Below are positions 49,101-58,628 of a stretch of 64,000 nucleotides of DNA, in pieces (position 1 is the stretch's first letter; each line of letters starts with the position of its first letter). The stretch lies in assembly GCA_014905635.1 (NCBI GenBank), contig JABVCE010000003.1, positions 992,001 through 1,056,000 on the forward strand. Direction: 5' to 3'. The position numbers and the translations under genes are program-made. The DNA comes from Scenedesmus sp. PABB004. Lineage: Eukaryota. The notes under the pieces are model-generated. The model did not search any database. It was not told the origin of the DNA and saw only the letters and a list, made by a program, of their open reading frames with translations.

Positions 49101-51039
49101 GTGCGGCCGCCTCGCTGCCGCACGCCGCGCGCTGCAGCGCGGACTGCACGCGCAGCTGCAGCGCGGCGAGCGCGCCAGGCTCATCTGCGTCCGGCCCCGC
49201 GCCGCGCGGCAGCTGCATGCCGACGACGCACAGCGCCACGCGCAGCGCTGCCGCCGCCAGCGGCTGCAGGCCCGCGTTGCCCGCGGCGGCCGGCTCCGCG
49301 CCCACCCCGGCCAGGCAGTCCAGCAGCGCGTCGCCGAGCGCCGCCGCCAGGCAAGCCCACGCCGGCCCGAGCGGCGCGGGCGCCGCGGCGGCCTCGCCGC
49401 CCGCGGCGGCGCCGTCGTCTGCGGTCGCCTCGCTGGCAAAGATTTGCTGCATATAGTTTGGCTCGCCCTCGTCGTCATCGTCGTCGTCGGGCGCGTGCAC
49501 CAGCGGCGCGGGCTCGCCTGGCGCAGCGCCGGGCGCCGCCGGGGCCGCGCGGCTGCCCCCGCCGCTCGCCGCCGCCCGCCGCAGGGCCAGCAGCAGCAGC
49601 GCCAGCAGCGCGGCCGGCTGCTGCTGCGCGCCGGGCTCGTCGCCAGACGCGAGCGCCTGGTCCAGCACGCGCCAGGACGCCCCGCCGGGCTTGCCGCCGC
49701 GGTCGCTGTCGCCGCCGCCGCCGCTGTTGCTGCCACAGCCCTGCAGTGCCTCAGCAGCGGCGCCTGACCCACGCAAGAGGCGCGCCAGCAGCTGCACGCG
49801 CTCCACGCACCAGCCACCCACGCCGGCGTCGCGCTCCGCTGCGTCGGCGGCGCCCGCCTGCAGCACGGCCTGCCCGCTGAGCAGGCCCTGCGCCTGCCCG
49901 CCCGCGGGCAGCAGCGCGCGCGCCAGCCGCGCCACCGCGTCGCCGCGCCCCAGCGCCGCGAGCAGCAGGCCGCGCAGCTGCTGCGCCAGCGGCGGCCCGC
50001 CGACCAGGTGCAGCCGACCGCAGCCGAGCGCGAGCCGCCATGCGGGCTCCACGGCGCCCAGCGCCGGCGGCGCGGCCTCGGCCTGGTCGCTGCTTGGCGC
50101 AGCCGCAGGGCGCGCCGCGGCCGCCGCCGCCAGGCCCTGCAGCACATCTTGCAAGCTGCGCACGAGCTGCGGCGCGGGCGCGGCCGCCACGCCCTGCGCC
50201 GCTGCCTCCTCTGCGGCCGCCGCCGCCAGCTGCAGCAGCGCTGCCGACAGCGGCCACGCCTCGCTGGCGTCGTCCGTGGCGGCCGCCGCCCAGCGCGCCG
50301 CCGCGCCCGCGAGCTGCTGCAGCGCGCCCGCGAGCGCCCCAGGCCGCCCCTGCTCCAGCGCCGCCAGCAGCGTCGCGGCCTGCCGCGCCGGCGCCGGCAG
50401 CACGCTCGGGCGCGGCGCCGAGCTCATGGGCAGCTGGCCCAGCAGCTGCCGCAGCGCCGCCTGCGGGCCAGAGCTCGGCTGCGCCTGCTGCTGGCGCGGC
50501 TGCGTCTCCTGCTGCCCCGCTCCGCCGCCGCCCGCGGGCAGCGCTGACGCCAGCACGCCGCGCAGCGCCCCTGCTGCTCGCACCCTGCGAGCGGCGGCGT
50601 CGGGCGCGGGCGTCGGGGCGGGGGCGCGGGCGCGGCGGGTGCGCGGGTGCGCGGGCGCGCAGGCGCGCGCTGCGGGCAGCGGCGCGGCAGCGGCGGCGCA
50701 CCGCGCGGAGGGCGCTGGGGCCGGCTCATCGCCCGGGTGCGCGCAGAGTGAGCTCAGGGCGTCGGTGAGCGCGTCCAGCGCGCCTGCGGCGCCTGCGGCA
50801 GGGCAGGCGGCGACGCCATCAAGCGGCGCGGCGCGGCGTCGCGCCGCCGGCGCGCCGGCCAGGCCTGCGCCGCGCCGAGACGGCGCAGCGCGCGTCTGGT
50901 GCTGCCGTGGGCCCGCACCTGGCCGCGGCGGAGGCAGGTCGAGATCGGCGCACGCCTGCGCGAGGCCGCCCACGCCTCGAGCCTCCTCGCCGCCGTGTTC
51001 CTCGCCGCCGTTGGTGTCGACGCCGTCCATCGAGCCCAT
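30014..51039 (-). CDS. BIG: Giant E3 ubiquitin ligase BIG/UBR4 (auxin transport protein BIG-like)
   Basis: UBR box QCSF..FIEQHW|YQCYTCGLTESKGCCSACAAVCHAGHDLVYSARSRFFCDCG (~44030-44335); Cys-rich LHCPRCSHVVTDRHGMCSYCR|ENAYQCRQCRHINYE..CSECGHSR; QEEFIPG, MRDVKNYVC, DDDFGMELLVGGSIVSLALPV, GLDGEATE; C-terminal CMVCREGY..SVSHFNLIHVACH..EWAGATLRN..CNALLP; TAG 30014-30016. The N-terminal third and the start codon are less certain. Confidence 0.9.
31119..31180. repeat. (GCC)n microsatellite encoding poly-Gly in BIG
   Basis: Uninterrupted gcc run. Confidence 0.9.
41770..41910. repeat. Mixed GCT/GCC triplet repeat encoding a Ser/Gly-rich insert in BIG
   Basis: ctgctgccgccg-type triplet array. Confidence 0.85.
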
Positions 51040-51371
51040 GCCCGCGCGGCGTCCCTCGCTGCGCCCGTCGCTAGCCGGCGCCCCGCGCCCGCTGCTGCGC
51101 CCCCGGCATCGGCACCGCCTGCTGCGTCGGCCCTCCGCGAAGCGTGTGAAGTCACGATCCCGTGTCCGGAAGGGCAATGGCGCCGCTGTCGGCGCGGCGG
51201 CGGCAAGGCGGCGCGGGCCTCGAGGTCTCAAGCAGCGCGCGCGCCGCCGTGCGGTCCCTCTCCCCGCGCAGGCGTCACGCCGCCGCCGAGGCGCCTCCCA
51301 CACCACCGGCAGCACGGGAGGACGCCACCCAGGCAGCGCCGCCCCCGCCGCGCGCCGCCGCCGCCGCAGCG

Positions 51372-54300
51372 ATGGAGCTGCGCGACCTTGCCCGCGCCGC
51401 CTTTGCGGCGGGGCGCTTCGAAGGTACCTCCGGTCACTCGCGCTTGCTGTCGAGGCGGCAACCGGCTCGCGGGGCCGCGAGAGGCAGCTTTTCAGCTGTC
51501 GGCAGCGCGCGCGCGCGCGAGCGGCTCTGCGCCTCCGCGGCTCCAGCCCGCGCCCGCGCCCCGCAGACGCGCTGGCGCTCTACCTGCAGGCCCTGGCGCT
51601 CGTGCCCGCCGACGCCCCGCCCGCCCCCGGCGGCCAGCCAGCCGAGCGGGCGGCGCTCGCCGCCAACGCGTCCGCAGCGCTCCTCCGCCTGAACCGGGCG
51701 GACGAGGCGCTCGCGTTCGCTGACGCGGCTGCCGAAGCTTCGCCGGGGTGGCCCAAGGCACAGTATCGCCGCGCCGCCGCGCTGGCGGAGCTCGACCGCC
51801 ACGGCGAGGCCGCGGCGGCGCTGGCGCGCGTGGCGGCGGGCCTCGAGGCGGCGGGCGAGGCGGGCGAGGCCGCCGCCGTGCGCCGCAAGCTGTGCGCGGC
51901 CACCGCGGCGGCGGCTGCGGCGGAGCAGCACCTGCAGGTGCAGTCGGAACTGGCGGCCGCGCACGCGGGCTGGGCGGCGGCACACGCGCGCGAGGTGCGG
52001 CCTGCTGCGAGCGGCGAGCGCCGCACGGGGCAGCTGCTCCGCCGCGCTGGCCAGCGCAAGGTGCAGGCTCGACGCACACTCACCCCTCCCGCCGCCCCTT
52101 GCCAGGCCGCCGGGCGGCAGGCGCTGCTGGGCCAGCTGCGCCAGGGCATGGCGGGGCACGCGTGGGAGCCGGCCGACTGGGAGTGGCGGCCGACGTGGGC
52201 GCCGAGCATGCGCGACGACGCCGACGACGACGGCGACCGCGGCGGCACCGCCCCGGCCGGCCTGCTCGGCGGCCTCGCCGGCGCGTTTGACGGGTCGGAG
52301 CAGCGCGCGCAGACGCTGGGCCTGGTCGCCGGCCTGTCCACGCAGCTCGCGGAGCTCGACGCGCCGCGCCGCGGGCTCGCGCTGCTGCGCGACGCGCCGC
52401 TCCTGTCCTGGTACGCTCGCGGCCTCGCGGCGGCACTGCAGGGCGCCGGCCCCGGCGCGCACGTCCTGGTCCTCGGCAACGGCGGCGGCGCGGTTCTGGG
52501 CCTGCTCGCGGCCGCGGCGGGCGCGGCGCGCGTGACCGTGGTCGAGCGCGCGCGCTGGGGCTTCCGCGCCGCGCAGCAGCTGCTGGCGGCCAACGCCGGC
52601 CTCGCGGCGGGCCGCGTGGAGGCGGCGCCGGTGCCGCTCGCGTGCGTCCGCGTCGCCGCGCGGCGGCCCGAGGGCGCGGCGGGTCCTCCTCCGGAGCAAG
52701 GGGAGCTGGACCACGTGATCCCCCAGGCGGCGGACGTGGTCGTGACTGACCTGATTGACTACAGGTGCGGCGCCTGCAGGCAGCTGCCGCGCGGCCGGCG
52801 GCGGTGGCAGTGCGCGGGCGCTCGCAGCAGCTGGGACCGCCCCGGCGCGCGCGCCTGCCCCGACGCGGCGGCACGCCCCGCGCCCGCGCCGCGCCGCCGC
52901 GCAGCGTGGTCGGACAGGGCCTCCTGCCGAGCCTGGCGACAGCGCGCGCGTCCGGGCTGCTCGCGCCGGGCGCGGTGGCGCTGCCTGCGCGCGTGGCCGT
53001 GCGGGGGATGCTGGTGGACACGGCGGCACCGCCGCGCGCTGCTGGCTTTGACCTGTCCGCAATGGCTCGCTACCACTGGCACCCCACCCTGGAGCGCGTC
53101 GACGCCGCCAGGCGCGCGCGGTGCCGGCGGGCTGCACCTGCCGCCTGAGAACGGGACCACGGCGGCCGCCGCTGGCGCGCGCGGCGAGGGCCACGCCGAC
53201 GCCGCCGCCACGCTGCCGCCGCCGCCGCAGGCTGCGCCAGTTTGGGCGCGCCTCGCCGGCCGCGGAGCTCCTGGCCCTGGACCTGCAGGCGCCCGGCGGC
53301 GCGGGCGAGGCGCGCGGCACTGTGACCTTGCCGCTGGCGGGGCCGTGCAATGCGCTCGCGCTCTGGTGCGAGCTGGCTGCGCCCGGCGGCGAGCGCGTCT
53401 CGGGCGGCCCCGCCGACGACGCCGACGCGCGCGACTGCTGCGGCGTCGCGCACAGCCTGGGTCAGGCCCTCCGCTACCTGGACACGCCGCTGCTGCCCCA
53501 GGGGGCGGCGGCCGCCGCCGCCGCCACGGCCGGCGACGCCGCCGCGGCCGAGCCGCAGACCGCGGCCGTCGCGGCGCGCGTGCAGCGCGGCCTGCGGCTG
53601 TCGCTGCGCGTTGAGGCGGGCCCCGGGCCGCTCGCGCCCGCGGCGACATGGGCGCCGCACGGCGCGCCGCGCCAGGCGATGCTGCCGCGCTGGCACTTTG
53701 ACATGATCGCCGACGACGCGCGCAACGCCGCGTACGACGGAGCGATCAGGTGCGTGACTGCGCGTGTGTGCAGCGCGCGCCGCGCGGCCTGCCGCCGAGC
53801 GGGTGGCGGCTCGAGGTCAGGCCCGGCGCGCGCCGCGACCCCGCGCCGCGCCCTGCCCCTGCCCCGCGCGGCGGCGCAGGCGCGAGGTCGCGCGCCTCAC
53901 GGCGGCGCGCGGCGGCGGCGGCGGCGGCGTGCACGTGCTGGACGTCGGCACCGGCTCGGGGCTGCTCGCGCTGATGGCGGTCAGGTGCGGCCCGCTGGCG
54001 CGCTCGGCGGCGGGGGGCGGGCGGACCCCGGCCTCGCGCACGTGCACGGCGGGGGAGCCTCGCTGTTGCACACCCGCGCGCCGCGCCGGCCAGTCCCTCT
54101 GCGCGGCCGCCGCCGCCGCCTCGGCCGCGGGGAGGCACCGCGCGCGCGCCCCGCCGCGCGCCCGCGCTCGCGCTGCGGTCGTGCGCTGCCCCCTCCGCCT
54201 CGGCCCGGCCCGGCTCGGCTCGGCGTCACGTCTGACTCCTGTCTGCGGGCGCCGGCTCGGGGGCTCAGCTGCTGGTGAAGAGCGCGTCCCAGCCGAGCAG

Positions 54301-57183
54301 GTACATGAAGCTCGAGTCGAGCAGCTGGCGCAGCAGGTAGAACTCGCCCGGCGTGAGGCTGACCGCGGCGGACGCGTTGGTCCCCGCGCCCTTGTCCGCC
54401 ACGCTCGCGTTGATGAAGTAGGCCTTGCCGTCAGGCGCGCGGCTCCACTTGAGCGTCTTGACCAGCTGCCCCTCGCGCCCGGGCTGGCCCTTGTCTGCGT
54501 GTGATTTGTGTGGGTGTCGGTGTGAGTGGGGGGGGGGCTGAGCGAGCGCGGCCGCGGCCGCGACCGCACGCACACACGCGCACACACGCCCACACCATCC
54601 ACCCCGCCCACACCCACCCACCACCCGCACACACCCACACCCACCCACCCACCCACCCACACCCACGCACACCCACACCCACACACATCAACACACGCAC
54701 GCACACAACACCCACATGTGTCGTGGTAGAACGTGTGGTCGGCCTCCGGCGCGGACAGCAGGTCGGCGACCTCCTGCGCGCGCAGCGCGATCGACACCTT
54801 GGCCTCCCAGTTGTACCGCCGCTCGCCCGCGGCGGACGCGATTTCAAACATCACAGTGCCCTCGCTGAGCGCGCGCGGGGCAGGGGTGGGCGGGCGGGGC
54901 AGGGGCGGGCGGGGCGCGGTCGCACGCGGGCGCAGACGCGCGGCGCGGGGCGCGCCGCGGGGCGCCCCGCCCGCCCGCCTGCCCCGCCGCGCCGCACCGC
55001 TCGATTTTGAACGCGCCGCCGGAGGTGTTGCCCCAGGTCGGCTTGATGGGGCGCACGTTGAGCGCGCCCTTGGTCTTGTAGACCGAGAACGCGGTGAACA
55101 CCGGCGGCGGGCCCGCCTGCGCGGCGCCGTCGCCTGCGGCGGCAGCGGCAGCGGTGCGGGCGGCGGGCGGTCGGGGCAGGGGCCGCTCACGCAGCGGCGG
55201 CGGCGGCGGCGGCAGGGGTCCCAAGCGGCGGCGGAGGGCGCCGCGCGCGGCCGCGCACCCGCGAAGCCCTCTGTGGTCTGCTCCATCACGCGGGGGGTCG
55301 TCGTGAAGCCGCGCCCGCCGCCGCGCGACGCCAGGGGCGCCCGCAGCGCGCCGGCCGCCGCCTGGCCGGCCGGCAGGCGCGCCAGCGACTGCAGCGCCCG
55401 GCTGCGGAGGAGCAGGGCGGCCATGGTGCCCCGCACGTGTGCACGCAGCGCCCGGCTGGCCAGCCACGGTCGGGCGGCGCCTCCCCCTTTCACGCGGGCC
55501 GGCCTGCGCGGCGGAGGCGGCGTCAGGCGCCTGAATGTGCCCCGACGCCCTGCCGCCGCCGCCGCCGCCGCCGCCGCCTGCCCGCCGGCGCCGCCGCGCA
55601 GGGCGGGCGCGGCGCGCACGACGGCGGTCGAGCAGGTGCGGCACCTCGCGGCGACCGCCGGCGCGGTGCTGGCGGCCAACGGCGCGGCCAGCGCGGTGCG
55701 CCTGGTGCACAAGGACGCCCGGCAGCTGACCGTGGGCCCGGACGGCGAGCTGGAGCGGCCCGCAGATGTGCTGGTCTTCGAGGTGCGCCCGGGGCGCGGG
55801 GATCGCGCTGTGCGCCGCGCCGCTGCGGCCGTGCTGCCGCTGCGCCACGATCTGCCGCTGGCACGCGCGTCCGCGGTCGCTGCACGCCCCAGCGACGGTG
55901 GCGGGTGCGGCTCGCTCGAACGCGCTCGCGAGCGCGCAGCCGCCCACCTGCGCGTCGCGCGGTCCACGCTCCGAGCGAGGCTGAGCGCACGCGGTCCCGG
56001 CAGCTGTCGGCAGCAGCTGGCGACAGCGGCGGCAGCAGCGAGACAGCGGCGGCGCTCGTGCGCTTGCGGCGGGCGGCGGGCGGCGGCGGGCGGTGCACTG
56101 GGCAAGACTGGGCAGAGCCTGCACCTGGCAGCGAGCCTGAGCGTCGGCCGCCACCGCTGACGGCGGTTCAGAAAATCCCCGTCGCACGCCCGCGCCCCGA
56201 CGCCCGCGCCCCGACGCCCGCGCCCCGACGCCCCCCACCCTGACGCCGCCGCCCTCCGCCACGCACGCCGCCGCGGGGCAGGTCTTCGACTGCGGCCTCA
56301 TCGGCGAGGGCGCGCTGCACCTCGTCGCCGCCGCGCGCGGCGCGGGGCTGCTCGCGCCCGGGGCGCGCGTGCTGCCGGCCGGCGCGCGCGTGCTCTGCCA
56401 GCCCATCCAGCTGCTCGCCGGGTGTGCGGGCAGCGCCTGCGGCATCGACGGCGCGCCGCTCGCGCCGTACGCGTGGGCGGGGCCGGACTACGTCGAGCTG
56501 GACCTGCGCCCCGGCGCGGCCGCGGCGTCGGCCGACGCCGGCGAGGGCGCGCCCGCGGGGGCTCGCCTGAGCTCGGCGGCGCGCCCGCGTGGCGCGCGCT
56601 CGCGCCGCCCGCGCTGGCGGCGGCGTTTGACTTCAACGCGCCCGACCCGGGCGCCACGTACGCGCCCGCCGTGCGGCGCGTCGAGTTTGCGGTCGCCCGC
56701 CGCGGCGTGGCCAACGCCGTCGCGTTCTGGTTTGATCTTACGCTGGATGAGCACGCGAGCCTGACCAGCAGCCCCTACGCCGCGCCCGGCGCGGCGCGTG
56801 CGACCTGGCAGCAGGCGGTGCAGCTGGTGCCGGAGGTCGCGGTGTTGCCGGGGCAGGTGCTGCGCCTCGACGCGTCCCACGACAGCTACGCGCTCGCCTT
56901 TGCCCTCGCTCCCGCCGACGCCGACGGCGCGTGCGCGCCCGCCGACGCCGACGCCGACGGCGCGCCGCGCCCGACCGGGGCGCCGCTCTTCGACCCGGCG
57001 TGGCGCGCCGCGTTTGAGCGCCTGGGCGAGGCGCGCGGCGCGCTGGCGAGGGCGGTCACGCAGGACCCGACCGAGTACCGGCGCGTCGCGGCGGCCGCGG
57101 CGGAGCTCGCGATGCGCCCCTGGGGCGCGCCGGCGGCGGACCCGCACTTTGCGTCGGCGCTGCTGGTGCAGCTCATGTCGTGA
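51372..57183 (+). CDS. TPR-containing protein arginine methyltransferase with two PRMT domains (PRMT7/PRMT9-like)
   Basis: TPR: MELRDLARAAFAAGRFE|DALALYLQAL..ANASAALLRL..PGWPKAQYRRAAAL. Domain 1 degenerate (VLVLGNGGG, TDLIDYSVVGQG). Domain 2: WHFDMIADDARNAAYDGAIR, VLDVGTGSGLLALMAVR|AGA..AVE, DVLVFE|VFDCGLIGEG, NAVAFWFDL, TWQQA. Alternative in-frame ATG at 51177. Frame break at the G run ~56557-56561. Confidence 0.85.
54265..55424 (-). CDS. WHY: Whirly ssDNA-binding protein, probably mitochondrial (WHY2-like), nested antisense in a PRMT intron; coding exons 55424-55259, 55133-54998, 54864-54716, 54494-54265
   Basis: Presequence-like MAALLLRSRALQSLARL..RGFTT; FSVYKTKGALNVRP (KGKAAL-like motif); EGTVMFEIA..RRYNWEAKVSIAL; FYHDTYKGQPGREGQLVKTLKW; VSLTPGEF..FMYLLGWD; all three introns GT-AG with the frame preserved. 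Confidence 0.9.
54566..54715. repeat. Degenerate CA/CCCA microsatellite in Whirly intron 3
   Basis: cacacccacac-type low-complexity tract. Confidence 0.8.
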
Positions 57184-57419
57184 GCGCGCACGCATGCGTG
57201 GCGCGCGAGGTTACCGCGGCCAGGGGGGCAATGCGCCCCGCCGCCGACGCCCGCGATCGACGGCGCGCTCGGCGCAGCTGCAACTGCAAAAACGGGCAAC
57301 CGCAAGAAGCGATCACTGCTGGTGTACACACGCGACGCGGCCGCACAGGGCGGCCTCCCCCAAACAGACTGCTGCTGTACAGGGCGCAGGCGCCGCCCGC
57401 CGCCCGCGCCGCCGGGCGG

Positions 57420-58271
57420 TCAGCCCTCGAGCGCTTCCAGCTGCCGCCGCTGCGCCTGCAGCCGCGCCGCGCGCGCGCGCACGCCCGCCTGCAGCGTCCG
57501 CGCCTCGAGCTGCGACACGCGCAGCTGCTGCTGCACTGCCTCCAGCTCCGCCTCGACCTGCGGCGCGGGCGGCGGCGAGTCAGCGCGTCGCCGCGCGCGC
57601 CCGGGCGCCGCCCCGCCGCCGCGCGCCGCGGCGGCGGCCGCCCCGCCCCCGCGACTCACCGCGATCGGCGCCGCCTGGACGACCTGGTTGTGGTAGAGGC
57701 GCAACGCGCTCAGCTGCCAGGTCGTGGCCGACGCGGCGCGCGCCGACGCCGCGCGCTGGAGCTGGCCCAGGCGCCGCTGCAGGCGCTGCTCCGTCGCCTG
57801 CTCCGCCGCGAGCCGGCTGCGCAGCGCCCGCAGCTGCCTGTCCAGGTGCGCGGCGTCGCTCTGCAGGCGGTAGCGCGCGAGCCGCCGCTGCAGGCGGCGC
57901 TCCTTGAGCTCCGCCTCGCACCTGCGCCATCGCGCCGTCGCGCCAGGCGTCGGCGTCTGGGGGTGGCGGCCCCGGGCGGCCCCCACAGCCACTGCAGCCT
58001 GCCGCGCGCGGGCGGCGCACCTGGCCCGGTACAGGGACCGCCAGTCCGGCGGCGGCGCCTGCTCGTGCTGCTGCTGCCGCTGCTGCTGCTGCTGCGCCGC
58101 TGCGCCCCAGGCCTGCTCGTAGAGCCTCCGCCACGCGCTGCCTGCGTTGACCACGACGCGGTGAAGGCGCCTGCAGCTTCTTGAGAGGCGCAGCATGTCC
58201 GGGGCGTCCAGGCAGCGGCAAATCGCCTCGAAGCACGCCCCGTCCAGGGCGAGGAGGCCGGCCTGGGCCAT
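57420..58271 (-). CDS. F-box protein with coiled-coil C-terminus, SKIP24-like, 3 exons
   Basis: LLALDGACFEAICRCLDAPDMLRLSRSCRRL..WRRLY (F-box); DWRSLY; RAASATTWQ..HNQVVQAAPIA|VEAELEAVQQQL resembles the plant SKIP24 C-terminus. Confidence 0.75.
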   Translation of the reverse strand: MAQAGLLALDGACFEAICRCLDAPDMLRLSRSCRRLHRVVVNAGSAWRRLYEQAWGAAAQQQQQRQQQHEQAPPPDWRSLYRARCAARARQAAVAVGAARGRHPQTPTPGATARWRRCEAELKERRLQRRLARYRLQSDAAHLDRQLRALRSRLAAEQATEQRLQRRLGQLQRAASARAASATTWQLSALRLYHNQVVQAAPIAVSRGGGAAAAAARGGGAAPGRARRRADSPPPAPQVEAELEAVQQQLRVSQLEARTLQAGVRARAARLQAQRRQLEALEG

Positions 58272-58628
58272 GGCGTGCCGCGCTCGAGGGCCGGAACGCG
58301 TGTGCCAGCCAGCCAGCGTGAGTGCGGTCCGAACGCGCGCAGCCGCAAAAAACACGCAAACCGGCAGCCACCCCGACTCCCGAATTCGAACCCGCGCCCC
58401 TGCCGCCCGCCCCCGGCCGCGCCTGGCTGTTCTGAGTCGGTTGTGAGCGACCGCAGGCCAGCGGGGTGCCGGTCAACGCGGTCGGTTGCTCGGGTTGTTA
58501 GCCTCTCTTCGCAGGCACCGCCTCCCCGCCGGGAGTCCCCGAGCCGTGCTCCCGGCGTCAATAGGTCGCCAGCAGTCGGCCGCAGTCGCGCGACCGAGCG
58601 GCAGCGCGGTTGCCATCGCGCGGCGGCG

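Follow-up and report, generated by a model that had tools for sequence, protein, structure and literature searches.

Nested genes, that is, complete and intron-bearing genes lying on the opposite strand within an intron of an unrelated host, are known from animals (Kumar 2009 and Assis et al. 2008, both as cited in PMC3488318). According to the account given in the latter, gains of such genes outnumber losses and no functional link to the hosts is seen, which is consistent with a neutral process (PMC3488318), and there is a report of nested genes causing transcriptional interference in mammals (PMC3192792). Here we describe a pair of the same kind in a 64-kb window of genomic DNA from the green alga Scenedesmus sp. 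PABB004 (64,000 nt of contig JABVCE010000003.1, positions 992,001 to 1,056,000; all coordinates below count from the first base of this window). The host is a protein arginine methyltransferase (PRMT) gene on the plus strand, and one of its introns holds a complete Whirly coding sequence on the minus strand, as homology, splice sites and codon composition together support. The PABB004 pair differs from the animal nested genes in that it belongs to a unicellular green alga, and in that its host intron is only 1.6 kb long. A limited search of open-access full texts found no description of a green-algal nested pair of this kind, which is not proof of absence. The pair is a further instance of a known gene arrangement.

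The closest described relatives of the guest are the Whirly proteins of potato (p24/PBF-2, 1l3a) and Arabidopsis (WHY1-3; 4koo, 4kop, 4koq), and in Chlamydomonas a single Whirly gene with a chloroplast-located product is described (PMC4758235). Compared with this family, the guest has a full-length domain and stands out by nothing but its genomic position; as a protein it looks ordinary. The relatives of the host are PRMT7 and PRMT9, which likewise consist of two modules, and PRMT9 likewise carries N-terminal tetratricopeptide repeats (TPRs). The PABB004 genome is given as 39.8 Mb in 77 contigs with 78.5% GC and 7,092 genes (PMC12571836). G+C content is about 80% across the whole window, the genes of the window carry spliceosomal introns, and two pieces encoded in it are 100% identical to NCBI proteins of Scenedesmus sp. 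PABB004 (P0001 and P0004).

The host gene and its parts were modelled as follows (SAM, S-adenosylmethionine).

51372..57183, plus strand: PRMT host gene, 7-exon model, with N-terminal TPRs and two tandem PRMT-like modules
51372-51423, 51567-52764, 52905-53120 and 53231-53749, plus strand: PRMT exons 1-4, with GT..AG introns
53880-53984, plus strand: PRMT exon 5, first half of SAM motif I (glycine-rich loop), matching PRMT7 in phmmer
53985..55601, plus strand: host intron (PRMT intron 5), GTGCGG...GCGCAG, 1617 nt, GT..AG
55552-55597, plus strand: C-rich (GCC)n tract just ahead of the host-intron acceptor, a repeat in the sequence
55602-55782, plus strand: PRMT exon 6, second half of motif I and the next Rossmann-fold strands, matching PRMT7
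55783..56281, plus strand: PRMT intron 6, 499 nt, upstream of Whirly on the minus strand
56282-57183, plus strand: PRMT exon 7, the last exon, with the stop, supported by orthologue identity
56545..56575, plus strand: apparent 1-nt frame change beside a run of five G, near 56559, in the last PRMT exon

The six PRMT introns measure 143, 140, 110, 130, 1617 and 499 nt and are all GT..AG. The first exons of the 7-exon model agree with the NCBI model P0004, and the whole model aligns end to end with orthologues of about 960 aa. When the last 197 PRMT codons were searched with HMMER against representative proteins, 316 proteins were matched at E<=1e-3, of which 95 reached E<=1e-10 and 3 reached E<=1e-30. 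Many of them are about 960 aa long with the matched part at their C-terminal end. 'Type II protein arginine methyltransferase' is among the source names of the matches, and Mesostigma viride is the origin of one cluster. The spliced PRMT model was then aligned with MAFFT to seven of the 150 listed matches, picked for length.

The host intron separates exons 5 and 6. Exon 5 ends with ...GCG GTC AG at 53984, GT stands at 53985-53986, AG at 55600-55601, and exon 6 opens with G at 55602, so that the codon divided by the 1617-nt intron reads AG|G, arginine. In phmmer, residues 14-33 of exon 5 matched residues 71-90 of the PRMT7 chain 3wst_A (E 2.1e-4), and residues 16-34 matched residues 65-83 of the PRMT7 chain 4c4a_A (E 0.63). 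Residues 1-59 of exon 6 matched 4c4a_A 85-143 (E 1.1e-4), its sole PDB match at E<=10. As exon 5 ends at residue 83 of 4c4a_A and exon 6 starts at 85, just one residue (84) is left for the split codon. In the MAFFT alignment the split-codon arginine falls over arginine in all seven orthologues without a gap, the column being invariant, and once exons 5 and 6 are joined, motif I and the acidic post-I residue are present, column for column with the seven orthologues. The earlier note on this DNA had proposed that the SAM-binding motif is split by a 1617-nt GT..AG intron, and sequence, phase and PRMT7 collinearity all agree with it.

The conservation continues downstream of the junction. Both glutamates of the double-E loop, whose catalytic role is established, lie at the exon 6/7 junction and are invariant in the alignment (E418 and E427 of P0006), and a W-Q-Q-A-V-Q stretch downstream of the loop is also conserved. 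Compared with the closest orthologue, P0006, identity is 19/32 in exon 5, 30/61 in exon 6 and 137/260 in exon 7. For the C-terminal beta-barrel/oligomerisation subdomain, the piece from the window scored 17.6 bits on PF22528, under the 27-bit cut-off; P0007, P0009 and P0015 pass this cut-off, and their matches to the window piece have E values as low as 6.7e-37. The best PDB matches of the orthologue P0007 are PRMT7 (E 2.8e-30) and PRMT9 (E 1.2e-25).

In PRMT7 and PRMT9 the active module comes first. In the host family, the module that resembles their catalytic N-terminal one is C-terminal instead (574-860 in P0007), and at the positions of the second module's two loop glutamates the first module of the host shows D and G/F. 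Judged from these sequences, the module order of the host family appears to be reversed relative to PRMT7/9. The family of about 960 aa (P0007, P0009, P0015, P0020, P0041) includes members from Mesostigma viride and from many marine metagenome contigs.

Within the host intron, on the other strand, the following gene was assembled.

54265..55424, minus strand: Whirly gene, full coding sequence including the stop, 4 exons, 681 nt = 226 codons plus stop
55259..55424, minus strand: Whirly exon 1, start context caccATGg, no Pfam match, as expected of a targeting peptide
54998..55133, minus strand: Whirly exon 2, PF08536 positions 1-27, E 2.4e-4, 21.4 bits (alone, below the 23-bit cut-off)
54716..54864, minus strand: Whirly exon 3, PF08536 positions 30-79, E 1.3e-10
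54265..54494, minus strand: Whirly exon 4 with the stop, PF08536 positions 84-135, E 1.6e-6

The three Whirly introns (125, 133 and 221 nt) are all GT..AG and are placed identically in the independent NCBI model P0001, the C-terminal 226 residues of which are identical to the nested Whirly model. In P0001 the Whirly domain covers PF08536 positions 1-135/136 with 114.1 bits against a cut-off of 23 (E 5.6e-33). A comparison of P0001 with PDB gave six matches, all of them Whirly (E 1.4e-27 to 2e-23), the best being potato p24/PBF-2, 1l3a_A, over residues 32-193. Two algal Whirly proteins derived from transcriptomes share 65-69% identity with exon 4, and the residue of the codon split between exons 3 and 4 aligns gap-free to the transcript-derived orthologue P0002. 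The ATG at 55424 is the earliest in-frame ATG of an 826-codon stop-to-stop frame. The N-terminus that follows abounds in R, A, S and L and is free of acidic residues over its first ~45 positions, a composition suggestive of an organelle presequence. Most of Whirly intron 3 consists of a (CACC/CACA)n microsatellite of about 150 nt (54567-54716, local GC 0.69).

The Whirly coding sequence lies wholly between the donor and the acceptor of this one PRMT intron and fills 1160 of its 1617 nt, with a 5' flank of 177 nt and a 3' flank of 280 nt. The claim that a whole 4-exon Whirly coding sequence sits on the opposite strand within the intron was thus borne out by the assembled coding sequence and its collinear Pfam PF08536 matches. 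Because the Whirly pieces are collinear on PF08536 and the PRMT pieces are collinear on PRMT7, the arrangement reflects homology and not chance. The ten other local introns measure 143, 140, 110, 130 and 499 nt in PRMT, 125, 133 and 221 nt in Whirly, and 99 and 102 nt in the neighbouring F-box gene, with a median of about 131 nt by hand count. The host intron was described in the earlier note as over ten times the local norm; it is indeed about 12x this median, but only 3x the adjacent 499-nt intron, so that the contrast ranges from 3x to 16x by comparator.

G+C content by codon position (positions 1/2/3) was compared between the two genes.

PRMT exon 5: 0.857/0.60/1.0
PRMT exon 6: 0.867/0.533/0.967
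PRMT exon 7, first part: 0.86/0.63/0.989
Whirly coding sequence: 0.652/0.546/0.965

Overall, PRMT exons 5-7 gave about 0.86/0.6/0.94-1.0, whereas the introns and the intron flanks beside Whirly were flat, with 0.68-0.94 at all three positions. This periodicity indicated that both sides of the large intron are coding in the PRMT frame, while inside the intron coding character is confined to the Whirly frame of the opposite strand.

Taken together, we consider it highly probable that the locus is a true nested pair, made up of a plus-strand host of the PRMT7/9 clade and an independent antisense guest, the 4-exon Whirly gene. In such a pair, PRMT would be transcribed through the 1617-nt intron, with Whirly being read antisense by RNA polymerase II, and the spliceosome would then remove the intron and join 53984 to 55602. 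This join would rebuild SAM motif I across the split arginine codon. Whirly would be transcribed independently from the other strand, with its own start, its own stop and three small introns, and its product would be a single-stranded-DNA-binding protein, probably targeted to an organelle. Reasoning from the sequence, we infer that both genes are expressed, that the 53984/55602 splice is used, and that both ends of the Whirly transcript probably lie inside the host intron.

Several points weigh against this reading. At 80% GC, long open frames arise by chance, and open frames alone are little proof. The PRMT reading frame is not intact in the assembly, which has one 1-nt change near 56559; if this change is real, the host may be a recent pseudogene. 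The distance of 177 nt from the Whirly ATG to exon 6 means that the promoter or 5' untranslated region (5'UTR) may overlap host exon 6, in which case the unit would not be strictly intronic. Finally, the public annotation models the locus differently, as a truncated PRMT and an F-box-Whirly fusion.

The frame change was located by length and by homology. The PRMT exons sum to 3173 nt, leaving a remainder of 2, and the conserved PRMT sequence switches frame between ~56545 and 56575, inside a stretch of about 17 residues without counterpart in any of the seven orthologues. The sole GT..AG intron that would mend the frame, 80 nt at 56492-56571, was rejected, as it removes residues conserved in the orthologues, and GC..AG introns of 23-119 nt were not adopted because of their poor donors. 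A one-base homopolymer assembly error is the simplest reading of the frame change.

The frame change is also one of the points that would fit a broken host, in which PRMT was split by the arrival of Whirly or by a rearrangement, the TPRs and the first module (module A) survive, and the catalytic exons are a relic or a separate transcript. The public upstream model stops at 53974, as this explanation would have it, and the frame of exon 6 is open back into the intron, with an ATG near 55422, making a separate downstream open reading frame formally possible. However, canonical GT and AG stand exactly where homology demands them and in the right phase. The downstream exons are 40-53% identical to the orthologues, catalytic loops included, and are therefore not decayed; their G+C is 0.94-0.99 at the third codon position and near 0.6 at the second. 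In addition, the last exon of the public upstream model overlaps the conserved motif I but reads it in a different frame, and a product of the downstream exons only would be without the glycine-rich SAM loop. We therefore judge a broken host to be very unlikely.

The public PRMT model, P0004 ('TTC28', 640 aa), has the same ATG as the 7-exon model but skips exon 3 (52905-53120), in which 21-28 of 68-70 residues are identical to the orthologues. Beyond 53749 it uses 53822-53971 as an exon in the wrong frame, and its stop at 53972-53974 falls ten bases ahead of the big intron. A word-based search with 53232-53750 gave this truncated NCBI model as its sole match. With PRMT exon 6 (60 aa), the same type of search gave no match among database proteins of at least 106 aa at E<=10, and no self-match either, which makes it weak evidence. 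It had been predicted that automated annotation would split the PRMT into two genes. The PRMT model is broken at the nested gene as foreseen, but the outcome is a truncation to 640 aa and not two genes.

The public model on the other strand involves the gene next to PRMT.

57421..58271, minus strand: F-box gene, neighbour convergent with PRMT, Pfam F-box-like E 2.2e-6

In P0001 ('WHY1', 467 aa), the F-box exons 58271-58017, 57917-57657 and 57554-57483 are joined to a 57-nt exon, 56003-55947, and the model resumes at 55502, runs across the Whirly ATG and goes on into the four Whirly exons. If the public annotation were right, Whirly would be the C-terminal domain of a 467-aa F-box-Whirly fusion encoded on the minus strand between 58271 and 54265, which would overlap the 3' half of PRMT in antisense. 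NCBI P0001 has precisely that structure, and Pfam finds both F-box-like and Whirly in it. On the other hand, the F-box frame, read straight past 57483, reaches its own stop after 21 codons. The linking exons, 56003-55947 and 55502-55425, have no Pfam match and run antisense to a PRMT intron and the region upstream of Whirly, and the 1479-nt and 444-nt 'introns' of the model swallow conserved PRMT exons. The transcript-derived P0002 is without the F-box part, although it has only 146 aa and may be partial. The presequence-like stretch of Whirly would normally be expected at the N-terminus of a protein, and the annotated total of only 7,092 genes, as reported for this genome, is consistent with merged models without proving them (PMC12571836). 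A genuine fusion is thus highly improbable in our judgement, and both public models at the locus, TTC28 and WHY1, are wrong on the sequence evidence.

A further possibility concerns the 5' end of the guest and is a variant of nesting: the two genes may be interleaved and not strictly nested, with the promoter, the 5'UTR or a 5' non-coding exon of Whirly reaching past PRMT exon 6 and into the intron of 499 nt. The Whirly ATG is separated from PRMT exon 6 by only 177 nt, the neighbouring host intron has an unusual length (499 nt), and the public model has a minus-strand exon within it. By its position, the 499-nt intron may hold Whirly promoter or 5'UTR sequence. Against this, untranslated regions elsewhere in the window are short, the PRMT and F-box stops being ~237 nt apart, which makes a 5'UTR of less than 177 nt plausible. 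We regard interleaving as possible but rather unlikely. The same intron contains a perfect tandem repeat of a 14-nt unit in 3.4 copies (56186-56233).

Some observations were also made on the sequence around the pair. A search of Rfam over 51000-58500 at E<=0.1 gave no match. TGTAA is the green-algal polyadenylation signal, as known from Chlamydomonas; it occurs 3 times in the 64 kb against 2.15 expected, which is chance level, and none of the copies is assignable to Whirly. TGTAC is present in 2 copies in the ~240 nt (57183-57421) that separate the convergent stops of PRMT and the F-box gene.

The nested pair having been described, its age was approached through distant relatives of the host. 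In a PRMT alignment scan of metagenome contigs, 189 relatives were confirmed and 80 were kept, with a total length of 951,389 nt. The 80 loci are 39-45% identical to PRMT in the best segment, as distant relatives would be. A single tblastn segment spans the split-codon position in all 80, meaning that they have no intron there, and a Whirly match at E<=1e-3 was found in none of the 80. Whirly relatives were also searched by tblastn, and none was found in metagenome contigs (178 pattern matches) or in contigs of prokaryote genomes (37). With 80/80 loci uninterrupted and 0/80 carrying Whirly, the nesting is not ancestral to this PRMT family. The three introns of the guest show that it is not a retrocopy. 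We infer that Whirly moved, or that the host was rearranged around it, at the DNA level; a relocation of the intron-containing Whirly gene into the PRMT gene would then have taken place in the lineage leading to PABB004.

As to what the nesting does, the earlier note had suggested that transcription of the two genes collides or is co-regulated, whereas nested genes in general are described as functionally unconnected with their hosts (PMC3488318). The arrangement is most likely selectively neutral, and any antisense interference would be a side effect and not a designed control. It is decidedly improbable, in our estimate, that the nesting is kept by selection in this extremely compact and GC-rich lineage, with antisense transcription of the host making Whirly and PRMT expression mutually exclusive or reciprocally tuned through collision or double-stranded RNA, and with the arrangement being common to the closest relatives.

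The main value of the present analysis lies in the correction of two public models, a truncated PRMT 'TTC28' and a chimeric F-box-Whirly 'WHY1'. Taken at face value, these wrong models would leave the alga without this catalytic domain of PRMT and give it an odd Whirly fusion. Gene predictors that forbid overlap can mis-model compact algal genomes of 78.5% GC, and, since only 7,092 genes are listed for PABB004 (PMC12571836), the gene count and the domain architectures deserve caution. As a clean and small (1.6 kb) host-guest pair in a culturable alga, the locus suits tests of antisense transcriptional interference.

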